Source: Acidimicrobiia bacterium (GTDB taxonomy: Bacteria > Actinomycetota > Acidimicrobiia > Spongiisociales > ZC4RG35). From it: 64,000 nucleotides of DNA. How positions within the stretch are numbered: the first letter of the stretch is position 1; each line of letters opens with the position of its first letter. Below the pieces are notes generated by a model. That model saw only the letters and a program-made list of their open reading frames with translations, ran no database searches and had not been told where the DNA came from. The position numbers and the translations under genes were made by a program. The stretch spans positions 3,786 through 67,785 of the forward strand of contig DATBMA010000023.1 in NCBI GenBank assembly GCA_036555105.1, in the 5' to 3' direction. This document shows positions 4,292-64,000 of this stretch, piece after piece.

Positions 4292-4321
4292 GGCGACGTC
4301 CCAGGTGGCACACTGCAGCCG

Positions 4322-39277: not shown

Positions 39278-39320
39278 AAGGGCCGAAGCTCATTTCGAAC
39301 CTGGCACAAGGAGCTTGCCC

Positions 39321-40412
39321 ATGTCCCTGACCGGGCATCTTGATGTTTTTGCTCTCGAGGAGGTGCTTCGCCTCCTGGCGCGTTCGTACAAGACCGGCTG
39401 CCTGCGGGTGGACGCCGGCGAGGTGCACGGACGCGTCTACCTGTCCTCCGGGACGATCTCGTTCATCACAGCTGGAACAGACGACGATCTGAGGCGCCAA
39501 CTGCTTCGCGCGGGCGTGGCGGACGACGAGAGCCTCCGGGCAATGGAGCGGGGCTCGAGCTGGAGTGATCCCAGCACGACCCGCAGCCAGGGGCTCAGCA
39601 ACTTCGTCAGGGAAGAAGTCGTCGAGAGCCTCTACCGGATCCGCCGCCCCGGACGCGGCCAATTCGTCTTCAATGCCGACGTCGCGCCCCGCTACCCGAT
39701 AGGGCAGAGCTTCGACGTGGAGATGACGATCGCGGACGCCGACCGTCGGGCTGCCGACTGGGCAGACATCGAGGCAATCCTGCCTTCGGTGGAGCTTCCG
39801 ATTCGCATCGTGACTGATGTCGAGGGCGACATCACCGTCTCCCCCTTCGCCTGGAAGCTGATCTCCGCCATGGGCGGCATCGCCACCCCGGCCGGGCTCG
39901 CCGACGGCATGGGCCTCAGCCGATTCGTAGTGGCACGCGAGGTTGCCGATCTGATGCACCGCTCGCTGCTCGAACCTGCCGTGCAGACGGCCGAGCATGA
40001 GCATGAACCTGAGCGGGAGCCCGAGGCCGAGGCCGAGCCTTACTCTTACGAGACCTTCGCCCCGGCAGCCACCGCGGACACGGCCTTGCAGGAGACCTAC
40101 GGCGACGAGCCGATCGCGGACACCGCACCGGCCTTCGAGGAGTCAAACCAGGCCGAGGAGACCCAGGCCCCGGCGGCAGGTGTCGACGGTGGTTGGTGGG
40201 TCGAGCCGGACCGCCCAAGTGGTCAGGCGGCCGACGAGAGCGCACCCGAAGGCCAGGGCGAGGGCACCCCGCTGGCCGATGGCTTCCTCGAGAGGGTCTT
40301 CGCCCAGCTCGAGGAGACCGACGCCGAAGGCACCGCCGAGCAGCCCAGCATCGGACACGGGTTCCTCAAGCGGCGCCGGATGAGCTCGCTCACTCCAGAA
40401 GACCTCACCTGA
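39321..40412 (+). CDS. DUF4388-domain protein with long acidic low-complexity C-terminal tail
   Basis: N-terminal LTGHLDVFALEEVLRLLARSYKTGCLRVDAGEVHGRVYLSSGTISF matches DUF4388/PATAN-like; C-terminal half is highly acidic (HEHEPEREPEAEAEP...); AAGGAGC RBS before ATG 39321. Confidence 0.6.
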   Translation: MSLTGHLDVFALEEVLRLLARSYKTGCLRVDAGEVHGRVYLSSGTISFITAGTDDDLRRQLLRAGVADDESLRAMERGSSWSDPSTTRSQGLSNFVREEVVESLYRIRRPGRGQFVFNADVAPRYPIGQSFDVEMTIADADRRAADWADIEAILPSVELPIRIVTDVEGDITVSPFAWKLISAMGGIATPAGLADGMGLSRFVVAREVADLMHRSLLEPAVQTAEHEHEPEREPEAEAEPYSYETFAPAATADTALQETYGDEPIADTAPAFEESNQAEETQAPAAGVDGGWWVEPDRPSGQAADESAPEGQGEGTPLADGFLERVFAQLEETDAEGTAEQPSIGHGFLKRRRMSSLTPEDLT

Positions 40413-40489
40413 CGCCCGCCGGGCCGGGCTCTCGATCCTTCAGCGAGGTCATTGGCCGCCGATAGGCGGACCGATAAGGTCGACGGCAG

Positions 40490-41215
40490 TTGCAGACGGC
40501 GCTTCTCACCATCGCCGGGCTCCTGCTCGGGCCCTGGTTGCACACGCTTGCAATCCAGGCCGGAGCCGACCTCCCATTTCGCCTCAACGCTGCCCATTGC
40601 CGGGTCTGCGACCAGCCGGTGTCGACCTTCGACCTCCGCTGCTCCAGTTGCGGGCGCACCCGCTGGCGGGAGTGGCTGACCGGGCTGGTGGCGGCGGCAG
40701 GATTCGCCGCCATGAGCTGGCGGTTCGGCACCGATCCGGTGTTACCCGCCTATGTCTGGCTGGTTGGCACCGGGGTGGTGCTGATCCTCACGGACTTCGA
40801 TCACTTTCGCATCCCCAACCGCATCCTCTATCCGGCCACCTTGGTGTCGGTCGTGCTGCTTGCCACCAGCGCCTTGCCCACCGGCCGTGCCCCTGACCTG
40901 CTGCGGGGAATGCTGGCCGGGCTCGCCTACGGCTTGTTCTATTTCCTCGTATTCCTCCTGGCGCGGGGGCGGGGGTTGGGCTTCGGGGACGTGAAGCTGG
41001 CCGTGATGCTGGGGCTTTACGCCGGATTCCAGTCGTGGCCGACGTTGGTCCTCGCCCTCTTCGCCACCGCCATCATCGGGGGGGCGGCAGCCATCATCCT
41101 GCTCGGACTGGGCCGGGGCCGAAAGGCCGAGCTGCCCTATGGACCGCCGCTCATCATGGGAACTTGGCTTGCGATCGTGCTGGGCCCGACGTTCCTCTCT
41201 TGGTACCTGGGCTGA
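40490..41215 (+). CDS. prepilin (type IV leader) peptidase, A24 family
   Basis: N-terminal Cys-rich zinc region (CRVCDQP...CSSCG), polytopic TM, and a GFGDVKL-containing aspartyl protease core; TTG start. Confidence 0.8.
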   Translation: MQTALLTIAGLLLGPWLHTLAIQAGADLPFRLNAAHCRVCDQPVSTFDLRCSSCGRTRWREWLTGLVAAAGFAAMSWRFGTDPVLPAYVWLVGTGVVLILTDFDHFRIPNRILYPATLVSVVLLATSALPTGRAPDLLRGMLAGLAYGLFYFLVFLLARGRGLGFGDVKLAVMLGLYAGFQSWPTLVLALFATAIIGGAAAIILLGLGRGRKAELPYGPPLIMGTWLAIVLGPTFLSWYLG

Positions 41216-43928: not shown

Positions 43929-44486
43929 ATGGTTTCCACCAACGACTGTCGGCCGGGGATGGCCCTCGACCTCGGGGACGGCATCTTCACCATCATCGAG
44001 TACCAGCATGTCAAGCCGGGGAAGGGGAGGGCGTTCGTCCGCATGCGGCTGCGCAACATCGAGACCGGGCAAGTGCTCGACCGCACCTTCCGGGCCGGCG
44101 AGGACGTCTCTCAGGCCATCATCGAGCGCCGGGAGCATCAGTTCCTCTACAAGGACGACCTGGGCCTGCACTTCATGAGCTTGGAGGACTTCTCGCAGAT
44201 GGCGATGAGCCCAGCCGAGGTCGGGGAGGCGGTCAGCTTCCTGACCGACGGCTCCACTGTCACTCTTGCGCTGTACAAGGGCAAACCGATATCGGTGGAG
44301 TTGCCGGCCTCGGTCGAGATGGAAGTGACCTACACCGAGCCCGGGGTGCGAGGCGACCGGGTCTCCGGGGCATACAAACCGGCGACAGTGGAGACCGGGC
44401 TGGTCGTGCAGGTCCCGTTGTTCGTCAACCAAGGCGACCGCGTGAAAGTCGATACTCGCTCAGGCGAGTACATCACCAGGGTGTGA
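43929..44486 (+). CDS. efp: elongation factor P
   Basis: 185 aa with a KOW-like N-domain (KPGKGRAFVRMRLRNIETG) and two OB domains; AGGAG RBS. Confidence 0.95.
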   Translation: MVSTNDCRPGMALDLGDGIFTIIEYQHVKPGKGRAFVRMRLRNIETGQVLDRTFRAGEDVSQAIIERREHQFLYKDDLGLHFMSLEDFSQMAMSPAEVGEAVSFLTDGSTVTLALYKGKPISVELPASVEMEVTYTEPGVRGDRVSGAYKPATVETGLVVQVPLFVNQGDRVKVDTRSGEYITRV

Positions 44487-44869
44487 GCACCGACGCACGC
44501 GACCTGGCAGTGGCCGCCTTGTATGAGTTGGACCTGAGGGGGAGCACGGAACCCCCCACAGACCTCCCTCCCAAAGCGGCCGCGCTCGTGGCCGGGGTGA
44601 TCGAGCATCGGAACGAGCTGGATGAAGCCATCGACACGGTCTCCGAGCACTGGAGACTGGAGCGCATGCCGGTGGTGGACAGGGCCATTCTCAGGCTCGG
44701 CGTCTTCGAGCTGCGCCACCGGCCTCGAACTCCGGCGGCAGTGGTCGTCTCCGAAGCCGTTCGGTTGGCGAAGGAGTACTCCACCGAGCGGAGCGGGGCA
44801 TTCGTCAACGGAGTGCTTGCCACGCTGGCCGAACAAACGGGTGCCTCTACCCCGCCCGAGTCTGGCTGA
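44483..44869 (+). CDS. nusB: transcription antitermination factor NusB
   Basis: ARDLAVAALYE ... DRAILRLGVFEL; GTGA overlap with efp. Confidence 0.9.
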   Translation: MSTDARDLAVAALYELDLRGSTEPPTDLPPKAAALVAGVIEHRNELDEAIDTVSEHWRLERMPVVDRAILRLGVFELRHRPRTPAAVVVSEAVRLAKEYSTERSGAFVNGVLATLAEQTGASTPPESG

Positions 44870-44905
44870 CCGAGTCGGAGGGGACGGCTGCTAGCCTCGC
44901 CCCCG

Positions 44906-44939
44906 CCTTTAAGTCCGGTCCAGAGAGGCCGGGAAGGAG
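44906..44939 (+). promoter_or_regulatory. PyrR-binding RNA hairpin (pyr leader) positioned to occlude the pyrR Shine-Dalgarno
   Basis: ccgg-UCCAGAGAGG-ccgg stem-loop (44915-44932) carrying the conserved PyrR binding-loop motif; flanking ccuu (44906-09) can pair with the aagg of the SD GAAGGAG (44933-39) just upstream of GTG 44944. Confidence 0.6.
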
Positions 44940-44943
44940 CGAA

Positions 44944-45468
44944 GTGCCACAGGTCATGGATGAGGCCGATGTCGGCCGGGCGATCAAGCGGATCGCCCAC
45001 GAGATGCTCGAGCGCCATCGGGGCGCCGACGGTCTGATTCTTCTCGGCGTTCACACCCGGGGCGTCCCTCTTGCCTCTGCCCTGGCCGCAGCCGTCTCCG
45101 AGCTCGGCGAGCCGGTTCCGGTGGGTGAGATCGACATCGGGCCTTATCGGGACGACCTGGGCCGCCGCCCCACCACCCGGCTCGGCCGGACATCCCTGCC
45201 GGTCGATCCCAACGACCGAACGGTCGTGCTGGTGGACGACGTCCTGTTCACCGGGAGGACGATCCGGGCTGCACTCGACGCCGTATCCGATCTCGGCAGG
45301 CCCGCCTCGATCGAGTTGGCGGTGCTGGTGGACCGGGGCCACCGCCAGCTGCCGATCCGCCCTGACTACATCGGCAAGAACCTGCCGACATCGCTCGACG
45401 AGCGAGTCACAGTAAAGGTGGGCGCCGTCGACGGCGACACCGGAGTCTGGGTGGAACGAGCTCTATGA
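44944..45468 (+). CDS. pyrR: bifunctional pyrimidine operon regulator / uracil phosphoribosyltransferase PyrR
   Basis: RAIKRIAHEMLER..., PRPP motif VVLVDDVLFTGRTIRAA. Confidence 0.9.
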   Translation: MPQVMDEADVGRAIKRIAHEMLERHRGADGLILLGVHTRGVPLASALAAAVSELGEPVPVGEIDIGPYRDDLGRRPTTRLGRTSLPVDPNDRTVVLVDDVLFTGRTIRAALDAVSDLGRPASIELAVLVDRGHRQLPIRPDYIGKNLPTSLDERVTVKVGAVDGDTGVWVERAL

Positions 45469-52029: not shown

Positions 52030-52934
52030 CCACCAGCCTGGGCCCGCTGACATTGCGGACCCCGCTGGTGGCGGCCGCGGGCACCTTCGGGGCGGTCCAT
52101 GAGTTTGCCGGCTTTGGAACTCTCGGCTTTTACGGGGCGGCGGTTGCCAAGTCGGTCAGCCGGGACCCATGGCCGGGCCGGCCTGCACCTCGTCTGGCGG
52201 CGGTCGGCGACGGGATGTTGAACGGGATCGGGATCCAGAACCCAGGGATCGATGCATGGGTAGATGAGGTCGCCCCGCTAATGCCCCGGCTGGACGTCCC
52301 GGTTTGGGGCTCAGCGGTCGGTCGCACACCCGACGAATTCGCGCACGTTGCCGTGCGTCTGGCCGAGGCGGGCGTGGCCGCGGTCGAGATCAACCTCTCT
52401 TGTCCCAACCTCGAGGATGAGCGGATGTTCGCCCTCGACCCAGGGCTGTCTTCGGCGGTGATGGGCACCGTACGATCCGCGCTTGGAGCCGGCGTGCCGG
52501 TGGGAGCCAAGCTGGCGCCGAACACTCAGGACATCTCGGCGGTAGCGGGGGCGTGCCGAGACTCCGGTGCAGACTGGGTGGTGATCTCCAACACCCAGTT
52601 GGGCGCTGCGATCGACCCATCGACCCGCAGGCCGCGTCTGTCGATCGGGGTCGGCGGGCTGAGCGGCCCCCCCTTGAAGCCGGTCGCCATCCGATGCGTA
52701 ATGGAGGTGAGGCAGTCGCATCCCGACCTCCCGATCCTCGGTTGTGGAGGTGTTACCACCGGAGCGGACGTAGTCGAGTATCTGCTGGCGGGCGCCTCAG
52801 CGGTGGGGCTTGGCACCGTTCACTTCGCCGAGCCCAGAGCGGCGAAACGGATCACCGGCGAGTTGACGCGCTTCTGCCTGGCACAGGGGGTGGCTCGCAT
52901 CGCCGACCTCGTGGGGGCGGTGCGGCCGTGGTGA
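52011..52934 (+). CDS. pyrD: dihydroorotate dehydrogenase, class 1 (Cys active-site base)
   Basis: NLSCPN catalytic loop with Cys, GIQNPG and GGV(T)TG FMN-binding motifs; start overlaps carB by 19 nt. Confidence 0.85.
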
Positions 52935-53638
52935 CCGGCCTCATAGTGGCGTTGGACGTGGCTCAGGCGGCTGAAGCTCTCACCCTGGCCAACAAGCTTC
53001 GACCGATAGTCGACGGCTTCAAAGTGGGACTGGAGCTGCTGGCCGGACCCGGGCCAGCCGTCATCGGAGCAGTGCGCGAGCTGGGCCTGCCAGTGTTTGT
53101 CGACGCAAAGCTGCACGACATCCCCAACACCGTCGAAGCCGCCGCCAGCCGACTTGGCGCCTATGGAGCCCGCTGGCTGACCGTTCATGCCTCTGGGGGC
53201 GGGCCGATGATCGAAGCGGCCACGCGAGGGCTCGCAAGGGGCGCCGACGGGCACGAAGCCGGGATCCTGGCAGTGACCGTGCTCACCAGCCTCGATGCCG
53301 CCGACCTCGCTCAGACCGGCGTATCGGGGAGCCCGGGCAGCCAGGTGGCGCGGCTGGCACGCCTCGCCGCCTCCGCCGGGGCTGAGGGAGTGGTGTGCGC
53401 GGTGCGTGAGCTGGGTGATGTTGCCCAGGTCGCGCCAGGGCTCACCAGGTTCACACCAGGAGTGAGGCCTGCCGGCGCCGACGCGGGGGACCAGGCCAGG
53501 GTGGCCACCCCGGAGGAAGCGGCCCGCCGCGGCGCCGACTACGTCGTGGTCGGACGCCCGATCATCGCAAGTCCAGATCCGGAAGAGGCCGCGCGGAGCA
53601 TCCGCCGCCAGCTCGAAGGGGCGGCGACTGGTGGATGA
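52931..53638 (+). CDS. pyrF: orotidine 5'-phosphate decarboxylase
   Basis: LIVALDV ... FVDAKLHDIPNTV (DxKxxD) ... VVVGRPI; GTGA overlap with pyrD. Confidence 0.85.
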   Translation: MTGLIVALDVAQAAEALTLANKLRPIVDGFKVGLELLAGPGPAVIGAVRELGLPVFVDAKLHDIPNTVEAAASRLGAYGARWLTVHASGGGPMIEAATRGLARGADGHEAGILAVTVLTSLDAADLAQTGVSGSPGSQVARLARLAASAGAEGVVCAVRELGDVAQVAPGLTRFTPGVRPAGADAGDQARVATPEEAARRGADYVVVGRPIIASPDPEEAARSIRRQLEGAATGG

Positions 53639-54878
53639 GTTACAGCGGACCAGGTTGACAACCGACGAGGTCCAGAACAGGACGGTTCACACTCTGATGG
53701 CCTCCAATGCGGTTGGCAGCGGAGCCGTGGCCTCAGCGGTGGCAGCCATCGGCCTTGTGGCGGCCGAGATCCTGGGAGGCGACTCCTTGGCTGGGCTGCC
53801 GGTCGCAACCATTTCGATCGGCTCAGCCTTGGCCGCCCCGCTTCTTGCCGCCATCATGAGCCAGCGAGGCCGCCGTCCAGGAATGGTCGCCGGTTACTCG
53901 GTCGGTATCGTCGGCGCCCTCGGGGTGGTCGCCAGCGCTCAAGCCGGGACCTTCGTGTTACTGCTCCTCTCGCTGGTCGCCTTCGGCGCCGGCCAGGCCG
54001 CCAATTATCAGGGCAGGTTCGCGGCGGCCGACCTGGCCCAGCCGGATCACCGAGGCCGCGATATCGCCAGTGTCGTCTGGCTGGGAGCCTTGGGAGGGAT
54101 CCTGGCGCCACTGCTGGGACCCTGGGAGCAAAGGCTGGGGGAGTCATACGGGTTGGGAACCTATGTGGGACCAATGGTGATGGCAGTTGTCTTCTTCTCG
54201 GTCGCGGGCCTGATCGTCCTGATCCGGCTGCGGCCCGACCCGCTTGCCGTCCTCGGGTTCCCCGGCCGGGGAGCATCTGCTCCCGACCGCCGGCCGTTGG
54301 CGGGCCTGGCCGCCGCGATCCGAATACCAGCCGCGCGTTTGGCGCTGGTGGCGCTGGCCGTGTCTCAGGTGGTGATGGTTGCGGTCATGGCGATGACGCC
54401 GGCTCACATGCGTGATCACGGCCAGGCGGACCTCTCCTACTTCGTGATCGCCGCCCACATCGCCGGGATGTTCGGGCTCGCCCCATTGGTCGGGCGCTGG
54501 AGCGATGCATGGGGGAGGGTCAGGACAATCGGCTACGGGGGAGCCATCATCACGATCGGGACCGTCGCCTCGGTAGCAGCGGGATATGTCCCTGCTCTTC
54601 TCTTCGCCGGCTTGTTCTTGCTTGGGTTGGGCTGGAACTTCTGCCTGATCTCGTCCAGTGCGCTGCTGGTCGATTCGGTGTCCGAGTCCATGAGAGTGAA
54701 CGTCCAGGGCGGCTCCGATCTGCTGCTTGGCCTGGCGGCAGCAGTCGCCGGTCTCGTCTCGGGCATCATCAAGCAGGCAGCGGGCTTCCACTGGCTCGCC
54801 AACCTCGCTGCAGCAAGCGCCCTGGGGCTGGTGGTATACGCAATCGCTTTCACAAGAAGGCCGAATCCGGCGATCTGA
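53631..54878 (+). CDS. MFS transporter
   Basis: 415 aa with 12 predicted TM helices in the MFS topology; GTG start overlaps the pyrF end. Confidence 0.75.
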   Translation: MDELQRTRLTTDEVQNRTVHTLMASNAVGSGAVASAVAAIGLVAAEILGGDSLAGLPVATISIGSALAAPLLAAIMSQRGRRPGMVAGYSVGIVGALGVVASAQAGTFVLLLLSLVAFGAGQAANYQGRFAAADLAQPDHRGRDIASVVWLGALGGILAPLLGPWEQRLGESYGLGTYVGPMVMAVVFFSVAGLIVLIRLRPDPLAVLGFPGRGASAPDRRPLAGLAAAIRIPAARLALVALAVSQVVMVAVMAMTPAHMRDHGQADLSYFVIAAHIAGMFGLAPLVGRWSDAWGRVRTIGYGGAIITIGTVASVAAGYVPALLFAGLFLLGLGWNFCLISSSALLVDSVSESMRVNVQGGSDLLLGLAAAVAGLVSGIIKQAAGFHWLANLAAASALGLVVYAIAFTRRPNPAI

Positions 54879-54908: not shown

Positions 54909-55223
54909 ATGCCTCAACCACCCCCGATCACCCCGGAACAGCGACAGGCTGCTTTGGCCAAGGCGGCCGAAGCTCGCCGAGTGCGCGCCGAGGTCAAGGA
55001 ACTGCTCAAGACCGGATCGGTCGACTTCGCCGAACTGCTGAATCGTGCCGACAGCAACGACACCATCGCAGGCCTCAAGGTCGAAGCCGCTCTGGCTGCC
55101 CTGCCTGGCATGGGCAAGATCAAGGCCAAGCGGCTGATGGAAGCCAACGGCATCGCCGACAACCGCCGGTTGCGCGGGCTGGGCGAAAGGCAGCGTGCCG
55201 CGCTCCTCAGCGAACTCGGCTGA
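54909..55223 (+). CDS. mihF: integration host factor, actinobacterial type (mIHF)
   Basis: 104 aa aligning to mycobacterial MihF (GSVDFAELLN...LPGMGKIKAKRL); AAGGAGGGAG RBS; conserved position before gmk. Confidence 0.85.
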   Translation: MPQPPPITPEQRQAALAKAAEARRVRAEVKELLKTGSVDFAELLNRADSNDTIAGLKVEAALAALPGMGKIKAKRLMEANGIADNRRLRGLGERQRAALLSELG

Positions 55224-55803
55224 GGAAAGCGGCCGGCTCTTCGTCGTCTCCGGCCCTTCTGGAGTCGGCAAGTCGACGATCGTGGACGGGCTGGCTCGTC
55301 TGCGGTCTTTCCATTTCTCGGTATCCGCCACCACCCGGTCGCCCCGGCCCGGCGAAACCGAAGGTGTCGACTACCTCTTCGTGGATCGGGCCGGCTTCGA
55401 GCGGATGATTGCCGAAGGCGAGCTACTCGAATGGGCTACCTACGGAGACGATTACTACGGCACCCCGCGCCGCCCGGTGGAGGATGCCCTGACCGCCGGG
55501 AGCGACGTTGTGCTTGAGATCGAGGTGCAAGGGGCCCGGCAGGTCCGGAGCGCCTTCCCTGAGGCGGTTCTGGTGTTCATCGCGCCTCCTACCCCAGATG
55601 TGCTCGAGACCCGGCTGCGAGGCCGGGGTGACACCTCACCGGAGGCTATTGCCCGCCGCCTGGCGATAGCCAGGGAGGAGCTGGCCGCAGTCGACGAATT
55701 CGACCATGTCGTGGTGAACCATGACCTCGGTCAGGCGATCGCGGAGCTGGATCGAGTCATGGCCAGGTATCCTGGGGGCCAATCCAGCCAGGAAACACCA
55801 TGA
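55195..55803 (+). CDS. gmk: guanylate kinase
   Basis: P-loop VVSGPSGVGKST and SATTR motif; start (GTG 55195) uncertain and overlaps mihF. Confidence 0.85.
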   Translation: MPRSSANSAEESGRLFVVSGPSGVGKSTIVDGLARLRSFHFSVSATTRSPRPGETEGVDYLFVDRAGFERMIAEGELLEWATYGDDYYGTPRRPVEDALTAGSDVVLEIEVQGARQVRSAFPEAVLVFIAPPTPDVLETRLRGRGDTSPEAIARRLAIAREELAAVDEFDHVVVNHDLGQAIAELDRVMARYPGGQSSQETP

Positions 55804-56021
55804 AGATCGAAGAAGTAATCGACAACATCGGCAACCGTTTCGCGACGGTGGTGGTTTCTGCCCGACGCGCCCGCCAGATCAATTCCTACTTCAGCCAGCT
55901 CGGAGTCGGAATCGGCGAGTACGTGCCGCCGCAGGTCCACTCCCTCTCTCGCAAGCCACTGACCATTGCGATGGAGGAGATCGCCGAGGGGCGGGTCTCG
56001 GTCGAGCGCACCGAGGTCTGA
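55800..56021 (+). CDS. rpoZ: DNA-directed RNA polymerase subunit omega
   Basis: 73 aa; NRFATVVVSARRARQI; ATGA overlap with gmk. Confidence 0.9.
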   Translation: MKIEEVIDNIGNRFATVVVSARRARQINSYFSQLGVGIGEYVPPQVHSLSRKPLTIAMEEIAEGRVSVERTEV

Positions 56022-57199
56022 TGCTTCGCGGCCGGCGCATCCTGCTGGGGGTGTCCGGCGGGGTCGCCGCCTACAAGTCGGTCTATCTCTGCCGCCTCCT
56101 GATCGAGGCCGGGGCCGAGGTCGAAGTTGTGCTCTCCCAGGAGGCGCAGAACTTCGTGGGCGCCCAGACCTTCGCTGCCGTCACCGGGCGCAAAGTCGTG
56201 ACGTCTCTTTTCGGACAGGACCTGGTGAGCCCCCACACCGACCTTGGCAGGTGGGCCGACCTGGTGGTCGTCGCTCCTGCCACCGCCGCCACCCTCTCGC
56301 GGCTGGCAGGCGGTGCATCCACCGAAGTCCTCTCTGCCGTCCTGCTGGCCACGCGGGCGCCGGTGGTCCTGGCTCCTGCCATGCACACCGAGATGTGGGA
56401 GCACCCCGCCACCCGCAGGAACCTGGACGTGCTGAGGGGTGATGGCCACATCATCGTGGGCCCAGTCAGCGGCGACCTGGCGGGAGGGGACGAGGGCATC
56501 GGCCGGATGGCGGAGCCAGATGAGATCCTAGGCGTGGTGGAGGAGATGCTTGCCGGTGACTTCCAGGGGGTACGGGTACTGGTGACGGCCGGCGGGACCA
56601 GGGAAGCCATCGATGCGGTGCGGTTCATCGGCAACCGGTCGTCCGGAAAGATGGGCCATGCCGTCGCCTCCGAGGCAGCCACCCGAGGAGCCGACGTCAC
56701 GCTGGTCACCACCTCGGATCTCGCTGCCCATCCTTCGGTGAAGCTGGTGAGGGTCGAGTCGGCGGAGGAGATGGCTGCGGCAGTGGCCGGCATCGAGGCA
56801 GACGTGGCCGTGATGGCTGCCGCGGTGGCCGACTTCCGCCCGGCCCGGCCATCTGACGGGAAACTGGCCCGGGCCGACGGCCCTCCCGATCTCGCTCTCG
56901 AACCGACGCCCGATGTGCTTGCCGAGGTGGCACGGAGGTCGCCGCCTCCCTTCCTGGTTGGTTTCGCTGCAGAGGCAGGCGGGCTCGAGCGGATCGCCGG
57001 CAAGGCCGCCGCCAAGGGAGTGGACCTGCTCGTGGCCAACGACGTCACCGCGCCGGATGCCGGATTTGCGGTCGACACCAATCGGGTCACGATCGTGTTC
57101 AAGGGAGGGGAGATGGAGGAGTGGCCATTGGCCTCCAAGGTCGAGATCGCCAGGCGATTGCTCGATCTGGTGGGTGGGCAGATGGGCCGGCGGCGGTAA
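56021..57199 (+). CDS. coaBC: bifunctional phosphopantothenoylcysteine decarboxylase / phosphopantothenate--cysteine ligase CoaBC
   Basis: N-terminal flavoprotein domain (ILLGVSGGVAAYK) and C-terminal CoaB domain (GNRSSGKMG); TGATG junction with rpoZ. Confidence 0.9.
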   Translation: MLRGRRILLGVSGGVAAYKSVYLCRLLIEAGAEVEVVLSQEAQNFVGAQTFAAVTGRKVVTSLFGQDLVSPHTDLGRWADLVVVAPATAATLSRLAGGASTEVLSAVLLATRAPVVLAPAMHTEMWEHPATRRNLDVLRGDGHIIVGPVSGDLAGGDEGIGRMAEPDEILGVVEEMLAGDFQGVRVLVTAGGTREAIDAVRFIGNRSSGKMGHAVASEAATRGADVTLVTTSDLAAHPSVKLVRVESAEEMAAAVAGIEADVAVMAAAVADFRPARPSDGKLARADGPPDLALEPTPDVLAEVARRSPPPFLVGFAAEAGGLERIAGKAAAKGVDLLVANDVTAPDAGFAVDTNRVTIVFKGGEMEEWPLASKVEIARRLLDLVGGQMGRRR

Positions 57200-57210
57200 C
57201 CTCTCAATCC

Positions 57211-58389
57211 ATGCGGCGCTGGTACTTCGCTTCTGAATCGGTCACGGAGGGTCATCCCGACAAGGTGGCAGACGCCATCTCCGACTCGGTTCTCGATGCC
57301 GTCCTGGCTCAGGATCCGATGGGCCGGGTCGCCTGTGAATCAATGGTCACGACCGGTGTCGCCGTCGTCGCCGGAGAGATCTCTTCGCAGGCGGTGATAG
57401 ACATCGAAGCTCTCACCAGGTCGACAGTTGCCGACCTTGGCTATGACTTCGACCCAGAGTTCTCGGCCGACACGATACGTGTCCAGTCGCTCGTCCACAG
57501 CCAGAGCCCGGACATCGCCGCCAGCGTGACACGATCCCTCGAAGATCGGTCTGGCTCCCAGGATCCCCTTGATGCGCTGGGGGCCGGTGACCAAGGGATC
57601 ATGTTCGGATTCGCGGTAGACGAGACGAGCGAACTGATGCCACTTCCCATTCAACTCGCCCATCGCCTGGCCGAGAGGCTCGCCGCGGTGCGGCGTGAGG
57701 GGTTGCTCGGCTATTTGCGCCCCGATGGCAAGACCCAGGTGACGGTCGAGTACGAAGGAGACCGGCCGCTTCGAGTCACCTCGGCTCTGATTTCCGCCCA
57801 CCACGCCCCCGGGGTCGACTCGAAGGCGATGGCCGCTGATCTCCGGGCCGAGGTGGTCGAACGGGTCATACCTGACGACCTGCTGGCAGGAGATGTCGCC
57901 GTTCTCATCAACCCCTCCGGCAACTTCGAGGTCGGCGGGCCTCCGGCCGACACCGGCCTCACTGGCCGCAAGATCATCGTCGACACCTATGGGGGATATG
58001 CCCGTCACGGTGGGGGTGCCTTCTCGGGGAAGGACCCCACCAAGGTGGATCGATCGGGGGCCTATGCCGCCCGCCACGCCGCCAAGAACGTCGTGGCCGC
58101 GGGTCTGGCAAGGCGATGCGAGGTTCAGCTGGCATATGCCATCGGCCAGGCCGCCCCCTTCTCCATCCATGTCGACACCTTTGGCACCGCCAACATCGCC
58201 CCCGAGCGCCTCGACAAGTTGGTGGGCGAATACTTCGACTTCCGGCCGGCCGCCATCCTCCAGCGCCTGGGACTGCGCGCGCCGGTCTACCGACCAACCT
58301 CCGCTTACGGTCACTTCGGTCGCCCGGGCTTCCCATGGGAGTCAACGGAGGAGGCCGAGGCCCTCGCCGCAGCCGCCGAACAGTTCTGA
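57211..58389 (+). CDS. metK: S-adenosylmethionine synthase
   Basis: FASESVTEGHPDKVAD ... GGGAFSGKDPTKVDRSGAYAARH. Confidence 0.95.
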   Translation: MRRWYFASESVTEGHPDKVADAISDSVLDAVLAQDPMGRVACESMVTTGVAVVAGEISSQAVIDIEALTRSTVADLGYDFDPEFSADTIRVQSLVHSQSPDIAASVTRSLEDRSGSQDPLDALGAGDQGIMFGFAVDETSELMPLPIQLAHRLAERLAAVRREGLLGYLRPDGKTQVTVEYEGDRPLRVTSALISAHHAPGVDSKAMAADLRAEVVERVIPDDLLAGDVAVLINPSGNFEVGGPPADTGLTGRKIIVDTYGGYARHGGGAFSGKDPTKVDRSGAYAARHAAKNVVAAGLARRCEVQLAYAIGQAAPFSIHVDTFGTANIAPERLDKLVGEYFDFRPAAILQRLGLRAPVYRPTSAYGHFGRPGFPWESTEEAEALAAAAEQF

Positions 58390-60182
58390 GCCAGCCAGAG
58401 CCCATCAGAGCCGCCCGGGTCGTTCCCGCCGTTCCGACCTTCGCGGTCGATGCCGGGTTCTGGTATTCGATCCCCGACCACATGACGGTGGGATTGGGAA
58501 CGGCGGTCAGGGTCCCGCTGGGTGGACGGCGGACTGGTGGCCACGTGGTCGAGATCGGGGAGCGATCGCCCGAGCGACTGCGCCCGATCGCGTCCGTGTC
58601 CAGCCCGATCCCGATCTTCGACGCCCCGCTCTTGGAGGTCTTGATGTGGGCGGCCCATCACTATGTGGCACCGGTCTCGGTTCTGCTCGAGAAGGCGGCG
58701 CCACCCAATCGTCCCCGCCGGCCCGACCCGGGTTTGTTGCCTGCTCGCCTAGATGGGGCTGGCGCGGGCGGGCTGGACGCTCTCGGTCGGAGGAGCGCGG
58801 CCGGAGGAACCGGGGTCAGATTGGCCTATGTGAGCCGGGCGGCCGATCTCGGCTGGATCGCCGGACTGGCCGGCCCGGTGATGGCGGCGGGCGGGGGCTG
58901 CCTGATCGTGATGCCGACGGGGGCCGAAGTGTCGATGGCGGAGACGGCTGCGCGGCCCTTGCTGGGGGACCACTTGTTGACAGTCGACAATGATCGATCC
59001 GACGCCGAGGTCACCAGGGCTTGGGAGATGGCCGCCACCGTCGCCGGGGTGGCGCTGGTCGGGACCCCGCGGGTGGCGTCATGGCCGGTTCGCGATCTCC
59101 GTGTCGCCGCTGCCACCGAGGAGGGGCGCCGGGCTATGAAGGAGCGGCAGACACCGACCGTTGCTGTGAGGGAGCTCCTTTCCAGGCGGGCTGTCGCCAC
59201 TCCCCACAACCTGGCCTTTGTTGGGCCGACGCCGAGCATCGAGTGCCTCGGATCCGGGCTCGAGGAGGTCACCGCTCCCGGCAGGAGTTGGGGACTGGTC
59301 GAGCTCGTGGATCGGACCCGTGATGAGCAGAGCCGGGATCTGATCTCTCCGACCCTGGCCGCCGCGTTGCGCCGGGTGTTGGCCAATGGGGAGTCTGCAT
59401 TCGTATTTGCCCACCGGCGTGGATACGCCCCGGCATTCGTCTGCATCCAGTGCCGCAACGTGCGCCGGTGCCAGGTCTGCGGCGCCCGTCCCGAGCCAGG
59501 ACTCAGCTGCGTTCGTTGCGGGGCCGTGCTGGGGCCATGTGCCCATTGCGGCTCCGAGCGCTTTCGCCCACTGGGGGCCGGCGTGCAGCGGGTCGTGGAG
59601 ACCCTGACCCGAGTGTTTGGAGCCCAATCGGTCGGGGCCGCACCGGCGGCCACCGAGATACAGGTGGGGAGCGAAGCCGACCTGGCCGCCCTCCCCATCC
59701 AGGACCTGATGGGGGTGGTCGATGCCGACGGGCTGCTGCTCGGCACGCACTTCCGCGCGGCCGAAGAAGCCATCCGCATCCTTGGGCGGGTCGCAGGCAA
59801 AGTCGGACGAGGCGGAACCCGGCGGGCGATAGTGCAGACCGCGCTGCCCGGCCATCCAGCCATGGTCGCCCTCAAGAGCGGGAAGGCGCTTCCGTTCCTG
59901 CATTCAGAGCTGGCCATCCGGCGCCAACTCGGCTATCCGCCCGCTGGCGAGCTGATGATCGTGGAGCTGCGGGGTCAGGTGCCGGCCGATCCGCGGCGGG
60001 CCTTGGTCCAGCTCGACGACGGCATCGACCTGTTGGGGCCGGCCGAGACGCGCCATGGGATTCGATTCCTCGCCCAAGGCAACAGCCTCGACATGCTCCG
60101 CACCGGCCTTCGACCCGTCGTGCAGCGCTGGCGCGACTCGGGCACGATCGTGCGCATCGACGCCGACCCGCTGGAGTTGTGA
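58386..60182 (+). CDS. priA: primosomal protein N' (PriA), helicase-motif-degenerate actinobacterial type; start codon unresolved (CTG proposed)
   Basis: Conserved N-terminus LSQPEPIRAARVVP aligns to mycobacterial PriA residues 1-13; C4-C4 zinc region CIQCRNVRRCQVCG...CVRCG...CAHCG; no GxGKT Walker A or DExH motif; no ATG/GTG/TTG between the metK stop and the conserved N-terminus. Confidence 0.8.
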   Translation: MSQPEPIRAARVVPAVPTFAVDAGFWYSIPDHMTVGLGTAVRVPLGGRRTGGHVVEIGERSPERLRPIASVSSPIPIFDAPLLEVLMWAAHHYVAPVSVLLEKAAPPNRPRRPDPGLLPARLDGAGAGGLDALGRRSAAGGTGVRLAYVSRAADLGWIAGLAGPVMAAGGGCLIVMPTGAEVSMAETAARPLLGDHLLTVDNDRSDAEVTRAWEMAATVAGVALVGTPRVASWPVRDLRVAAATEEGRRAMKERQTPTVAVRELLSRRAVATPHNLAFVGPTPSIECLGSGLEEVTAPGRSWGLVELVDRTRDEQSRDLISPTLAAALRRVLANGESAFVFAHRRGYAPAFVCIQCRNVRRCQVCGARPEPGLSCVRCGAVLGPCAHCGSERFRPLGAGVQRVVETLTRVFGAQSVGAAPAATEIQVGSEADLAALPIQDLMGVVDADGLLLGTHFRAAEEAIRILGRVAGKVGRGGTRRAIVQTALPGHPAMVALKSGKALPFLHSELAIRRQLGYPPAGELMIVELRGQVPADPRRALVQLDDGIDLLGPAETRHGIRFLAQGNSLDMLRTGLRPVVQRWRDSGTIVRIDADPLEL

Positions 60183-60201
60183 CGTCGGGTACTGTCCGGT
60201 C

Positions 60202-60711
60202 GTGGCTCTCTACCCGATCCGCGTCTTCGGGGACCCGGTATTGCGTATGCGAGCGGGTGCGGTCACGACCTTCGACGAGCGGCTGGAGAAGCTCGTGAAC
60301 GACATGATCGAGACGATGTATGCCGCCCCCGGAGTCGGCTTGGCGGCCCCTCAAATCGGGGTCTCGCGCAGGGTGGCGGTGTTCGACGCGCAGGACGGCG
60401 AAGGAGCACGCGTACTCATCAACCCCGAGCTCCTCGAGACCAGGGAAGTCGAGGAATGGGACGAGGGGTGTCTGTCGGTGCCCGGCCACTATTGGGAGAT
60501 CACCCGTCCCGGCTTCGCCACGGTGCGCGGCGTCGACGTCACGGGCCAGCCGGTGGAGTACTCCGGTGACGGTCTCATGGGGCGAGTCCTCCAACACGAA
60601 CTGGATCATCTCGATGGCAAGCTCCTGTTGGAGCATCTCCCCTCCAAGGTCCGCAAGCAGGCGCTCCGGGTCCTCAGAGAAGAGGCGCTCGGATTGCCCG
60701 CCTTCGAGTGA
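60202..60711 (+). CDS. def: peptide deformylase
   Basis: GVGLAAPQIG, EGCLSVPG and QHELDHLDG metal-binding motifs. Confidence 0.9.
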   Translation: MALYPIRVFGDPVLRMRAGAVTTFDERLEKLVNDMIETMYAAPGVGLAAPQIGVSRRVAVFDAQDGEGARVLINPELLETREVEEWDEGCLSVPGHYWEITRPGFATVRGVDVTGQPVEYSGDGLMGRVLQHELDHLDGKLLLEHLPSKVRKQALRVLREEALGLPAFE

Positions 60712-61628
60712 CGCGCGCCGTCTTCCTCGGCACGCCGGACGAGGCCGTTCCCGCCCTATCGGTCCTGCGCAATATCGCCGACGTGAACCTGGTCATCACC
60801 AGACCGGACCGCCCGCGGGGGCGCTCCGCCCGTCCACAGCCATCAGCGGTCAAGGAAGCTGCACTGGCGGCCGGTCTGCCCGTCGCCCAGCCGGACGGGG
60901 CAGCGGCCCTGACCGAAGCGCTTCGCAGCCTTCCCGAGCAGCCCGAGGTCGGCCTGGTGGTGGCATTCGGCATGCTGCTGAGGCCGGAGGCATTGCAGGT
61001 CCCCCGACGGGGGCACCTCAACCTCCACTTCTCCCTGCTGCCGAGGTGGCGGGGGGCCTCACCGGTCACCGCCGCCCTTCTTGGCGGTGACAAGGAAACC
61101 GGGGTCAGCCTCATGCAAATGGACGAAGGGCTCGACCGCGGGCCTGTGCTGGCTTCGACCCGTATGCCGATACCTGAGTCCGCCGACCGCGGATCGCTGA
61201 GTGCCGAACTGGCCGACCGGGCTGCGGCGCTCCTCAGCCAAAGCTGGGAGCCGTTTCTCGCCGGCGACCTGATCCCCGTGGCTCAGGACGAGTCAAACGC
61301 CACCTACGCCCCCAAGCTGGGCGACTCCGATCGGCGGCTACGCCTGGACGATCCACCCGAGGCCTTCGTTCGCAGAGTGCGCGCCTTCGGCCCTCGCCCC
61401 GGGGCCTATCTGTTCATCGACGGCGCCCGTCACAAGGTCTTGGCTGCCAGGGTGGCTGAGGGTCAATCGCCACCGGGAAGCCTGGAGGTGGCTGCCGGCG
61501 GTGCGCTCCTCTGCGGCACGGGCGGAGGCGTGGTCGAGCTACTGCGCATCCAGCTGGAAGGACGGAGGCCGATGAACGCGGCCGATTGGCTGCGGGGGAG
61601 GCGCCCGAGGCCGGGGTCTGCCTCGTAG
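60708..61628 (+). CDS. fmt: methionyl-tRNA formyltransferase
   Basis: Formyltransferase N-domain (HFSLLPRWRGASP) plus C-terminal domain; GTGA overlap with def. Confidence 0.9.
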   Translation: MTRAVFLGTPDEAVPALSVLRNIADVNLVITRPDRPRGRSARPQPSAVKEAALAAGLPVAQPDGAAALTEALRSLPEQPEVGLVVAFGMLLRPEALQVPRRGHLNLHFSLLPRWRGASPVTAALLGGDKETGVSLMQMDEGLDRGPVLASTRMPIPESADRGSLSAELADRAAALLSQSWEPFLAGDLIPVAQDESNATYAPKLGDSDRRLRLDDPPEAFVRRVRAFGPRPGAYLFIDGARHKVLAARVAEGQSPPGSLEVAAGGALLCGTGGGVVELLRIQLEGRRPMNAADWLRGRRPRPGSAS

Positions 61629-61669
61629 CCGCGACGAGTCCGCAGATGGCCGCTCGGTAGACTCGATCT

Positions 61670-62329
61670 GTGCGACGAGTTCAGATCGCCCCGTCGCTCC
61701 TCGCCGCAGACTTCTCCCGGCTCGGGGCCGAACTTGCCCTCATCGAACCCTTCGCCGACCTCCTCCACCTGGATGTCATGGACGGACATTTCGTCCCCAA
61801 CCTCAGCTTCGGGATGCCGGTGATCTCATCCCTGCGATCGCACATCTCGCTGCCATTCGACTGCCACCTCATGACCAACAACCCGCTCGCCCTGATGGAG
61901 CCCCTGCGCGAGTCAGGCGCCGACCTCATCACCGTCCACATCGAGGCCGTCCCCAATCCTGTGGACGCCGCCGGTCTGGCGGGCGAGCTCGGCTTGCGCT
62001 TCGGGCTGGTGGTGTCACCTGCCACCCCTGTCGAATCGGTCGAGCCCTTCCTCGAGTTGTGCGACCTGCTGCTGGTCATGTCGGTCGTGCCCGGATTCGG
62101 CGGGCAGGCCTTCATGCCGGAGGCCCTTCCGAAGCTGGAGAAGGTCGCGACATGGGTTGATTCGAGGGGGTTGGCGGTCGATATAGAGGTTGATGGTGGT
62201 ATCAACCCGCAGACGGCGGCACTGGCACGCGCCGCTGGAGCGAACGTCTTCGTCGCCGGGACGACCGTTTTCGGGGCACCTGACCCGGTCGTTGCCATCA
62301 AGGAGTTGCGAGCGGCGGTCGAGCCATGA
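61670..62329 (+). CDS. rpe: ribulose-phosphate 3-epimerase
   Basis: IAPSLLAADF, LHLDVMDGHFVPN and VDGGIN motifs. Confidence 0.9.
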   Translation: MRRVQIAPSLLAADFSRLGAELALIEPFADLLHLDVMDGHFVPNLSFGMPVISSLRSHISLPFDCHLMTNNPLALMEPLRESGADLITVHIEAVPNPVDAAGLAGELGLRFGLVVSPATPVESVEPFLELCDLLLVMSVVPGFGGQAFMPEALPKLEKVATWVDSRGLAVDIEVDGGINPQTAALARAAGANVFVAGTTVFGAPDPVVAIKELRAAVEP

Positions 62330-63255
62330 GTGAGCGAATCCTCGTCGTCGACGACGACCCCGACATCCTCCAGGTGGTCAAGATCAACCTCGAGCTCGAG
62401 GGCTATGAGGTGGAGACGGCGACCGACGGGGTGGAAGCGGTTGACAAGGCCACCGCCGACCCGCCCCAGCTGATCCTGCTCGACATCATGATGCCGCGGA
62501 TGGACGGGCTCACGGCCCTCCGCCGGATCAGGGCTCATGGGGCCACCGGCAACACCTCGATCATCCTGCTGACTGCCCGTGGCCTGCCCGAGGACCGTGT
62601 GCGCGGGCTCGAACTCGGCGCAGACGACTACATCACCAAGCCGTTCGACGTCGCCGAGCTCGTGGCCAGGGTCATGGCCGTGCTTCGACGCACTCAGGCT
62701 GCGCGCGATCTCTCTCCCCTGACCGGCTTGCCAGGCAACTTCCGGATCGGGCAGGAGATCGAGAAGACGATCGCGTCCGGCCAGCAGTTCGCTCTCGTGC
62801 ATTGCGATCTCGACAACTTCAAGGCTTTCAACGACCACTACGGGTTCATGCGCGGAGACGAGGTCATCCGCTTCTTCGGACGTTGCCTGCGGAGGGCATC
62901 CGAAGAGGTCGGCGAGCCCGACTCGTTCGTCGGGCACATCGGGGGTGACGACTTCGTGACTTTGCTCGAGGCCGAACATGCAGAGGAGTTCTGCAAGCAC
63001 GTCATCGAGCATTTCGATGATGGAATCCTCGACTTCTATGACACCGCCGACGCCCTGCGGGGCTATATCGAGGTAATCGACCGGCGAGGTGAGCGTTATG
63101 CGTTCCCGGTCGTCTCCATCTCGCTAGGTGTCGTCACCAACCTCAACCGGGCGATCGAGAGCCAGTGGGAGGCCTCGGCGGTAGCCGTCGAGATGAAGGA
63201 GTTCGCCAAGAAGAAGTCCGGCTCCTCCTACGAGATCGATCGTCGTACCACCTGA
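62326..63255 (+). CDS. response regulator: REC domain fused to a GGDEF-family domain (motif variant GGDDF, no RxxD I-site)
   Basis: N-terminal receiver (VVDDDPDI...D55-like LLDIMMP...K-like ITKPF) plus a GGDEF fold (HCDLDNFKAFND ... HIGGDDF); ATGA overlap with rpe. Confidence 0.8.
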   Translation: MSERILVVDDDPDILQVVKINLELEGYEVETATDGVEAVDKATADPPQLILLDIMMPRMDGLTALRRIRAHGATGNTSIILLTARGLPEDRVRGLELGADDYITKPFDVAELVARVMAVLRRTQAARDLSPLTGLPGNFRIGQEIEKTIASGQQFALVHCDLDNFKAFNDHYGFMRGDEVIRFFGRCLRRASEEVGEPDSFVGHIGGDDFVTLLEAEHAEEFCKHVIEHFDDGILDFYDTADALRGYIEVIDRRGERYAFPVVSISLGVVTNLNRAIESQWEASAVAVEMKEFAKKKSGSSYEIDRRTT

Positions 63256-63256
63256 C

Positions 63257-64000
63257 GTGGGGGCCGAACAGGCCGCAATGGAACGCGCCGGTCAACTGGC
63301 CGGCTCCCATCACACTCATCCCAACCCTCGCGTGGGCGCCGTGATCCTGGATGCAGCCGGGTCGATTGTGGGGGAGGGGAGTCATCGGGGCCCGGGATCC
63401 CGACATGCCGAGATAGAGGCCTTGGCTGCCGCCGGGCCGGCCTCCGAGGGGGCGACGATGGTCGTGACCCTCGAGCCATGTGTGCACTACGGGCTCACTC
63501 CTCCATGCACGGATGCCATCGTCGCGGCCGGGATCGCCAGAGTGGTGGTTGGAGCCGTTGATCCGGATGAACGGGTGGGTGGAGGCGGCATCGCGGCTCT
63601 GCGCCGAGCGGGCATCGCAGTGGAGGTGGACCCAGATGCAAACCGGTGGGAAGCGATAGACCCCGACTATTTCCATCATCGCCGGACCGGGAGGAGCCGC
63701 TTCATGCTCAAACAGGCAGCGACGCTCGACGGACAGACTGCGGCGTTGATGGGAAGCTCGCGCTGGATCACAGGCGAGCGGGCGCGGGCCGATGCGCACC
63801 GGCTGAGGTCGGAAGCAGACGCGGTGCTGATCGGGGCAGGCACGCTGCTGTCCGACGACCCCGGCCTCGACGTCCGCCTTCCCAATTGGAACGGCCCCCA
63901 GCCGCGGCCAGTGGTGGTGGCCGGCCGGCGACCTCTGCCGATCGAGGCCAAGATCTGGGATCGAAGCGCCCTGGTGGTGGCGACCTCCGAGCCGCCCATA
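63257..64000 (+). CDS. ribD: riboflavin biosynthesis protein RibD (deaminase/reductase), 5' partial running off the window
   Basis: CMP/dCMP-type deaminase zinc motif HAEIEAL ... TLEPCVHYGLTPPC followed by the reductase domain start; no stop before the window end. Confidence 0.85.
   Translation, partial: MGAEQAAMERAGQLAGSHHTHPNPRVGAVILDAAGSIVGEGSHRGPGSRHAEIEALAAAGPASEGATMVVTLEPCVHYGLTPPCTDAIVAAGIARVVVGAVDPDERVGGGGIAALRRAGIAVEVDPDANRWEAIDPDYFHHRRTGRSRFMLKQAATLDGQTAALMGSSRWITGERARADAHRLRSEADAVLIGAGTLLSDDPGLDVRLPNWNGPQPRPVVVAGRRPLPIEAKIWDRSALVVATSEPPI

Follow-up and report, generated by a model that had tools for sequence, protein, structure and literature searches.

We describe a response regulator gene in a 64,000-nucleotide (nt) stretch of an Acidimicrobiia bacterium (contig DATBMA010000023.1), which we call the window. 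The gene lies on the plus strand at 62326..63255, starts with ATG and encodes 309 amino acids plus a stop; its protein joins a receiver (REC) domain to a C-terminal domain of the GGDEF fold in which the signature motif reads GGDDF. Our main finding is that this motif appears to be the fixed hallmark of a large subfamily that keeps the residues needed to hold Mg-GTP. We put at about 0.5 the probability that the regulator is a phosphorylation-activated diguanylate cyclase, making cyclic di-GMP (c-di-GMP), of an uncharacterised GGDDF type; the activity is one that we infer.

The gene is clearly real, since the GC content is 0.82 at third codon positions (GC3) against 0.41 at second positions (GC2) and since it has thousands of homologues. 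These number more than 8000, and the best is 97% identical (E 4e-196). An open reading frame (ORF) on the opposite strand, at 61681-63012, was taken as spurious, since the two genes that it runs opposite to both have strong homologues.

In agreement with the first-pass annotation, which was made from the letters alone, the protein has a single receiver and a GGDEF-fold domain. The GGDDF-type domain comprises residues 131-309 (62716..63252, plus strand). Pfam GGDEF (PF00990) matches residues 131-220 with an E-value of 4.1e-14 and 53.1 bits, the cut-off being 23.8. When a profile of the subfamily was compared by hhalign with a canonical REC-GGEEF protein taken from another locus (L064), 150 columns were aligned to the canonical GGEEF domain with a probability of 98.6%. 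The AlphaFold2 (AF2) model has a mean predicted local distance difference test score (pLDDT) of 94.4 and contains the complete GGDEF fold, in the order beta1-alpha1-alpha2-beta2-beta3-alpha3-beta4-beta5-beta6-alpha4-beta7. Its top structural matches in Foldseek are the REC-GGDEF cyclases WspR, PleD and DgcR. The annotation had considered that the C-terminal domain might fail to align as GGDEF; by profile comparison and predicted fold it does so over its whole length, with the metal and GTP residues intact.

The GGDDF motif is not specific to this protein. In 62 full-length orthologues collected from genome contigs, F[VI]GH[IV]GGDD[FY] and PLTGLPGN are both invariant. Further, a search of 1.84 billion cluster representatives with the C-terminal domain alone (residues 125-309) gave 834 clusters (at 50% identity) with E<1e-30; their matches extend over the whole domain, with about 37-64% of residues identical. 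Among the 150 best representatives, 139 have GGDDF and 2 more have GGDDY.

Alignments of 132, 67 and 36 diverse family members, the largest at 30-54% identity, give a common consensus. It starts with NPLTGLPGN...DLDNFKA[FY]ND.YGF.RGD...F.GHIGGDDF and goes on after GGDDF with ...FD..I...YD..D..RG.I...DR.G...S.S.GV.TN...AAE.K..AK...GS.Y..DRR. All the signature motifs of the subfamily are present in the window protein, namely NPLTGLPGN, D-L-D-N-FK-x-[FY]-ND-x-YG, F-x-GH-x-GGDDF, the Y-D..D..RG insert and A-x-E-x-K..AK. Positions G137, D161, G177, H204, G206, G207, D208, D209 and K295 are invariant in the family, while N169 and D178 are at least 90% conserved over the 132 members.

The first-pass annotation had read GGDDF as an unusual or degenerate signature. 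The motif itself is there, and so is the lack of an RxxD inhibitory site (I-site) that it reported; the reading as a one-off does not hold. Judged from these alignments, GGDDF is an invariant hallmark of a large, old and distinct GGDEF subfamily rather than a single loss of the catalytic Glu. The subfamily has no dedicated model in Pfam or NCBIfam and no structure in the PDB, where a profile search returns only canonical cyclases over the N-terminal half (the best match is DgcZ, at 4e-14).

The regulator as such is one of thousands annotated as "GGDEF domain-containing response regulators", and its architecture is ordinary. What appears to be new, in that we did not find it in the literature searched, is the recognition of GGDDF as a coherent, constrained and widespread subfamily that includes the C-terminal domain of Pseudomonas aeruginosa PA3258. 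The same holds for the finding that Acidimicrobiia carry one copy locked to the gene rpe throughout the class. The regulator gene is not mentioned in a paper on c-di-GMP enzymes in Actinobacteria. The REC-GGDEF protein ActA of Myxococcus was considered as a candidate for an already studied member; the paper on it gives no motif.

The domain can be compared with canonical cyclases motif by motif. It opens with PLTGLPGN (residues 131-138; 62716..62739, plus strand as for all features of the domain), the counterpart of the canonical D-x-LTGL-x-NRR entry motif; in the 67-sequence alignment L132, T133 and G137 do not vary, and each remaining residue of the motif is conserved to at least 90%. Next, the segment DLDNFKAFNDHYGFMRGD (62806..62859) is aligned by hhalign to DLDRFKAVNDTYGHPAGD of the canonical GGEEF protein. 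This places D161 at the metal-binding Asp of beta1 and N169 and D178 at the Asn and Asp that contact guanine; K166 is conserved, and F174 stands for the canonical His of "YGH". The signature hairpin GHIGGDDF (residues 203-210; 62932..62955) is invariant in the 62 orthologues. In it GGDDF occupies residues 206-210 (62941-62955), and D208 and D209 take the place of the canonical E-E, that is, of the [DE]-E pair. In the C-terminal helix and tail (63196..63246), mapped by hhalign and by family conservation, the invariant K295 corresponds to the phosphate-binding Lys of "AK..GRN" in alpha4, and the conservation of K291, S300, D305 and R307 is 90% or more.

Taken together, the conservation of D161, D208, D209, K295, N169 and D178 is what one would expect if the site still bound a Mg-nucleoside triphosphate. 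The residues that hold Mg-GTP are thus kept and are the most constrained in the family.

The subfamily also has features of its own. About 14 residues are inserted between alpha3 and beta4 (residues 235-248; 63028..63069), where the canonical sequence has a gap in the hhalign alignment. The insertion bears Y238, D242 and G246, and a conserved DR-x-G (R253, G255) comes after it. At the C-terminal end only this subfamily has the DRR motif (residues 305-307), which lacks a canonical counterpart. At the position of the RxxD I-site the window protein reads G-E-P-D, in a segment that is shortened and variable across orthologues.

The receiver domain spans residues 5-116 (62338..62673, plus strand) and matches Pfam Response_reg (PF00072) with an E-value of 4.5e-32 and 110.9 bits against a cut-off of 30.2. 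The predicted phospho-acceptor is Asp53 (codon 62482..62484, plus strand), and the rest of the acceptor pocket consists of D9, D10, T83 and K105. D10, D53, T83 and K105 are invariant in the 62 orthologues and D9 is found in 61 of them. By PDB sequence and Foldseek matches the receiver is OmpR/PhoB-like, with 45-51% identity to the receivers of PrrA, YycF, MicA and RpaA and a root-mean-square deviation of about 1.0-2.2 A to known receiver structures. The AF2 model shows the (beta-alpha)5 order of strands (E) and helices (H), that is E4-8, H12-24, E28-32, H35-44, E49-53, H61-70, E78-84, H88-96, E101-105 and H109-127, the last being an extended alpha5 of residues 109-127.

The partners of the domain in other proteins also point to signalling. 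In 79 long members of the subfamily, Pfam finds REC in 39, HAMP in 19, EAL in 16 (as EAL-CBS-GGDDF), CBS in 14, DUF5667 in 10, and HD or HD-GYP-type domains and HATPase_c in 3 each. This is a typical repertoire of c-di-GMP signalling. REC-GGDDF is the commonest architecture, with 39 of the 79 long members and about 50 short ones.

Further, in four loci of other Actinomycetota, where the regulator homologue is 49% identical, the REC-GGDDF gene is convergent with a REC-EAL gene in all four (L057:4530-9732; L058:2733-5424; L060:5734-9035; L061:5890-8240). In L057 there are two tandem REC-GGDDF genes, and a REC-HisKA-HATPase kinase gene stands between REC-GGDDF and REC-EAL. From its gene content, this layout looks like a compact module, controlled by phosphorylation, for making and breaking c-di-GMP. 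Among 80 metagenomic loci a histidine kinase gene directly adjoins the REC-GGDDF gene in L097, L100, L101, L103, L108, L109 and L110.

On the other side of the REC-GGDDF/REC-EAL pair, L057, L058 and L061 have a cystathionine beta-synthase-like PALP+CBS gene, and L060 has only a CBS-domain ORF.

In the window itself the regulator stands alone. The six-frame ORFs of at least 70 amino acids, 512 in all, were searched by phmmer with probes for HisKA-HATPase, EAL, receiver and GGDDF domains. The regulator was the only match, and no histidine kinase, second receiver, EAL or other GGDEF domain was found in the 64 kb. Pfam assigned the 42 other window ORFs only to housekeeping, transport or unassigned families, among them thrS, citrate synthase, fusA, pdxS/T, ruvB, queA, tgt, secDF, rel, hisS, aspS, alaS, aroC, aroB, efp, pyrB/C/D, carA/B, gmk and coaBC. 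A six-frame screen for the H, N, G1 and G2 boxes of kinases gave chance matches only, for instance inside alaS. The lack of a histidine kinase in the 64 kb, noted in the first-pass annotation, is thus borne out. That annotation also allowed for a cognate kinase just outside the window. In 56 syntenic loci of relatives, with flanks of up to 6 kb on each side, there is no kinase, receiver or EAL gene, which makes such a neighbour unlikely and the regulator an orphan across the class.

From these data we propose the following course of events. The regulator would be made constitutively, as the last cistron of a def-fmt-rpe housekeeping operon, its translation coupled to that of rpe. Asp53 would be phosphorylated by a histidine kinase whose gene lies elsewhere, upon which the OmpR/PhoB-like receiver would dimerise and bring two GGDDF domains together. 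Each of these would hold one Mg-GTP by means of D161, D208, D209, N169, D178 and K295, and the pair would condense two GTP into c-di-GMP. Because the RxxD I-site is absent, we propose that the product would exert no feedback inhibition.

A number of observations weigh against such a cyclase. The Pfam GGDEF match covers only profile positions 5-94 of 161. The fourth position of the motif is Asp in all 62 orthologues, against the Glu of the accepted consensus [GAS]G[DE]E[FY]. In the hhalign alignment H204 replaces the canonical Arg before GG (R-x-GGEEF), and by extension of that alignment S300 replaces the Arg of the C-terminal GRN, with G299-S300 in place of GR(N). Three canonical basic or acidic residues are replaced in a fixed, family-specific manner. 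Synthesis of any product has been reported for no member of the GGDDF subfamily, and overexpression of PA3258 did not raise c-di-GMP, as far as the result is cited in PMC8835794; that test is confounded because PA3258 also has an EAL domain. The catalytically active precedent for GGDDF, GSU1937 of Geobacter sulfurreducens, is probably from a different lineage, because its Hypr Ser sits where the subfamily keeps D178. Finally, a kinase partner was found neither in the 64-kb window nor in the flanks of the 56 syntenic relatives.

Several of these points would also fit a GGDDF domain that is not catalytic and only binds GTP, another nucleotide or a partner protein, the regulator then serving as an adaptor or sensor that depends on phosphorylation. 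At its fourth position the motif is unlike the active consensus, two canonical Arg are replaced, GGDDF is treated as degenerate in the literature (PA3258, Bordetella DdpB and a Streptomyces EAL-GGDDF protein), and PA3258 gave no cyclase phenotype, as cited in PMC8835794. In EAL-CBS-GGDDF proteins the domain could be an allosteric GTP sensor for EAL, like the GEDEF-EAL protein CC3396 as it is presented in PMC8835794. However, in REC-GGDDF, the commonest architecture, the GGDDF domain is the only output, and the invariant residues are the catalytic metal ligands and the phosphate Lys, for which a pure protein binder has no need. There is also no I-site to receive c-di-GMP, as used by non-catalytic receptor GGDEF domains, and the pairing with REC-EAL genes fits a synthase and hydrolase better. 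We therefore hold the adaptor or sensor to be somewhat unlikely.

Alternatively, the regulator may be an active nucleotidyl cyclase with a product other than c-di-GMP, such as a linear pppGpG-type molecule, a mixed cyclic dinucleotide or an oligonucleotide. H204, the 14-residue insertion and DRR would reshape the active site, and H204, Y238/D242/G246, R253/G255 and D305-R307, all of them invariant, lack equivalents in canonical cyclases. GGDD is common to the Cas10 palm cyclases, to which 3 of the 79 long members have weak matches (Cas10-Cmr2_palm2, 3.3e-5), and GGDEF enzymes of altered specificity are known (Hypr; PMC8835794). Yet the residues that recognise guanine, N169 and D178, are kept, in contrast to the Ser for Asp in Hypr; the associations with EAL, HD or HD-GYP-type domains and REC-EAL genes belong to the c-di-GMP world, and the window protein has no Cas10 match. 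Another product is in our view quite improbable.

A more far-reaching proposal is that the GH-x-GGDDF/DRR clade forms a catalytically distinct branch of GGDEF domains, whose product would be either c-di-GMP, made by a changed mechanism that is free of product inhibition, or some other signal, with the one orphan copy of Acidimicrobiia, tied to the def-fmt-rpe operon, as a core source throughout the class. This we regard as a long shot. If it were true, H204, the 14-residue insert and DRR would build a modified active site, and the clade would span the 834 clusters, including the domains of PA3258 and probably DdpB.

The reading as a GGDDF-type diguanylate cyclase has consequences for how such domains are counted. 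In c-di-GMP protein censuses GGDDF domains are routinely dismissed as degenerate, as was the case for PA3258, DdpB and the Streptomyces EAL-GGDDF protein, while our alignments unite them in a single large subfamily under strong constraint, in which all the residues that bind metal and GTP are kept. An active domain would mean that the cyclase counts of many genomes are too low. The Acidimicrobiia gene, encoding a simple and soluble representative of 309 amino acids, is suited to a direct test.

The regulator gene lies within a row of housekeeping genes, all on the plus strand. Upstream are fmt (methionyl-tRNA formyltransferase; 60708..61628; Pfam Formyl_trans_N and Formyl_trans_C), which is syntenic in relatives, and rpe (ribulose-phosphate 3-epimerase; 61670..62329; Pfam Ribul_P_3_epim, E 2.2e-64). 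Read directly from the sequence, the rpe stop TGA (62327-62329) overlaps the regulator ATG (62326-62328) in an ATGA at 62326..62329, with the junction GAGCCATGAGTGAG (GAGCC-ATGA-GTGAG). This confirms the overlap reported in the first-pass annotation and indicates that rpe and the regulator may be translationally coupled. Downstream, ribD (riboflavin deaminase/reductase; 63257..64000; Pfam dCMP_cyt_deam_1 and RibD_C) is cut by the end of the window. The regulator ends with TGA at 63253-63255 and the ribD frame opens with GTG at 63257, so that the two genes abut as had been noted, with a spacer of 1 nt. The next possible ribD start is ATG 63278.

A consensus scan of 56000-64000 gave no promoter-like site; its terminator-like sites were at chance level, with none between fmt and ribD.

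The window neighbours were searched by tblastn in 63 genome loci. With RG denoting the REC-GGDDF regulator gene, the order metK-priA-def-fmt-(rsmB)-rpe-RG-ribD is kept in about 56 loci from metagenome-assembled genomes of Acidimicrobiia, down to 54% identity. The arrangement had been called non-standard; in Acidimicrobiia it is the standard one. The orthologues at this position keep the same C-terminal domain and are not plain CheY-like regulators. The distance from the rpe stop to the RG start is between -8 and +10 nt in 53 of 55 loci, which implies that the coupling to rpe is ancient, and the 4-nt overlap recurs in 24 of the 55. By this synteny the regulator is a class-wide conserved signalling gene of Acidimicrobiia.

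Two variants of the upstream order can be mentioned. In many relatives rsmB (NusB and RsmB/F methyltransferase domains, about 1.2 kb) stands between fmt and rpe, for example at L005:4095-5315. It is absent from that position in the window, where the gap between fmt and rpe is 41 nt (61628-61670). In L001:3530-5534, from a close relative (86% identity), the regulator follows fmt by about 190 nt, with no rpe between, and is followed by ribD; the regulator thus stays at its position even where rpe is gone.

The contact with ribD has a different history. Among 11 loci scanned with Rfam, 8 have a flavin mononucleotide (FMN) riboswitch (RF00050, 111-114 bits) in the gap that separates RG from ribD. 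With an nhmmer profile built from these matches the riboswitch is found in 28 loci, where RG is 62-71% identical to the window protein and the gap to ribD is 175-400 nt. A further match lies about 470 nt downstream of RG in L050, a contig on which ribD was not recovered. The FMN riboswitch loci are L019, L025, L026, L028-L037, L039-L045, L048-L052, L059 and L062. In the window Rfam, run over the 64 kb, gives no match of any kind, and nhmmer finds no FMN riboswitch. The window and 26 further loci, of which 23 show at least 71% identity, have an RG-ribD gap of about -4 to +18 nt, with no riboswitch found in it.

These distributions suggest an ancestral layout of [def-fmt-rsmB-rpe-RG] followed by [FMN riboswitch-ribD...]. 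It looks like the clade of the window has lost the riboswitch, so that its rib operon became fused to the upstream housekeeping operon. Given the riboswitch in the 28 more distant loci, co-transcription with ribD would be secondary to this loss. The first-pass annotation had placed the regulator at a pentose-phosphate/riboflavin node: the rpe side of this stands, with coupling in 53 of 55 loci, whereas the ribD side is derived. The locus is also a clean example of FMN-riboswitch loss with a rib operon joined to an upstream operon.

A regulator dedicated to riboflavin or pentose-phosphate metabolism would agree with the tight coupling to rpe in those 53 loci, with ribD abutting the gene in the window's clade, and with one representative of 713 amino acids (P0212) that is a single REC-GGDDF-linker-RibD protein. 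Against this, the riboswitch makes the rib operon an independent unit in the 28 loci, L001 keeps fmt-RG-ribD without rpe, homologues of 49% identity occur in unrelated contexts (REC-EAL and cystathionine beta-synthase genes), and the one fusion may have arisen by read-through or faulty assembly. Such a dedicated role is very unlikely. Since the contact with ribD stems from riboswitch loss, it gives no evidence for a functional link to riboflavin and is no part of the cyclase mechanism proposed above. The position of the gene would mean expression together with housekeeping genes; it does not say that riboflavin is regulated.

In P0212 itself, DGR stands in place of DRR, and a stretch of about 45 residues continues into a complete RibD; the protein may be a true fusion, or else a product of read-through or misassembly.

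Some other features of the window are listed here as observations in their own right. It also encodes a full-length Rel/SpoT (p)ppGpp synthetase/hydrolase and a guanylate kinase (26806-28992 and 55138-55800). Both act on guanine nucleotides, and a link to the regulator is without evidence. A gene for a DUF4388-domain protein (39243-40409), followed by one for a type IV prepilin peptidase (Peptidase_A24; 40478-41212), is wedged between mltG/yceG and aroC in a stretch that is otherwise housekeeping. The ORFs at 4292-5236 (plus strand), 38453-39289 (minus) and 44476-45462 (minus) have a GC3 like that of coding sequence but match no Pfam family at E<=1e-5, and the same holds at E<=1e-4 for 52823-53686 (minus). 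The minus-strand ORFs without a Pfam family may be shadows of plus-strand genes.

Among known systems, the closest in general layout are WspR of Pseudomonas, PleD of Caulobacter and DgcR of Leptospira. Like the window protein, they consist of a receiver that a helical linker joins to a GGDEF fold. The window protein has an intact phospho-acceptor pocket and keeps the metal Asp, the guanine Asn and Asp and the phosphate Lys. They differ in having GG[DE]EF, where the window protein has GGDDF with a His before GG, no RxxD and no Arg of GRN; unlike them it has the 14-residue insert and the C-terminal DRR. Membership in the PleD equivalog (NCBIfam NF007135) was rejected, at 143.4 bits against a cut-off of 474 and with a single receiver instead of REC-REC-GGDEF.

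The palm cyclase of Cas10 resembles the window protein in its GGDD metal-binding hairpin, which sits in a related palm fold. In contrast to Cas10, all members of the GGDDF subfamily match GGDEF and have the domain partners of c-di-GMP signalling, and the window protein has no Cas10/Cmr2 match at E<=0.01, so a place among the Cas10 palms was discarded.

GSU1937 is the only published catalytically active GGDDF and shares with the window protein this motif in a GGDEF fold; it is a precedent in favour of the cyclase reading, in that such a domain can be catalytic. A chimera of it makes cyclic GMP-AMP (cGAMP) and c-di-GMP, while a GADDF mutant is dead (PMC8835794). GSU1937 is set apart by being a membrane protein and by having the Hypr Ser where the guanine Asp would stand. 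The Hypr type of GGDEF (cGAMP synthases such as GacA and GSU1937) is recognised by a Ser for the guanine-binding Asp, at the position of Ser348 in GacA (PMC8835794). The window protein was not assigned to it: D178 is present in each of the 62 orthologues, and its conservation in the family is at least 90%.

A PA3258-type gene was also met in CP075839.1, recorded as the P. aeruginosa "plasmid" pPALO11, where it adjoins a carboxy-terminal processing peptidase gene (L161, 1-3049). This matches the chromosomal prc-PA3258 order of PAO1, and the record may represent chromosomal DNA or a large chromosomal capture.

PA3258 itself, which adjoins prc, has 601 amino acids and the architecture EAL-CBS-GGDEF. 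It shares with the subfamily of the window protein the motifs NPLTLLPGN, D-x-D-x-FK-x-FND-x-YG, FVGHIGGDDF and AK-x-x-AK (AKRQAK), and over residues 2-180 of the window protein's C-terminal domain its identity is 35.9% (E 7e-25). The shared motifs and this identity put its "degenerate" C-terminal domain in the same GGDDF subfamily. It differs from the window protein in being EAL-CBS-GGDDF, with no receiver and no terminal GS...DRR. The P. fluorescens homologue of PA3258, RapA, is a phosphodiesterase (PMC3032545), and its EAL phosphodiesterase is the only known activity in the PA3258 group. For Bordetella DdpB (BB2957) and Streptomyces SAZ_08970, treated as degenerate, a GGDDF motif has been reported together with EAL, and in DdpB also CBS; from this motif and these domains they are probably similar to the PA3258 type. 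If the GGDDF domain is active, PA3258, RapA and other EAL-CBS-GGDDF proteins may combine two functions.

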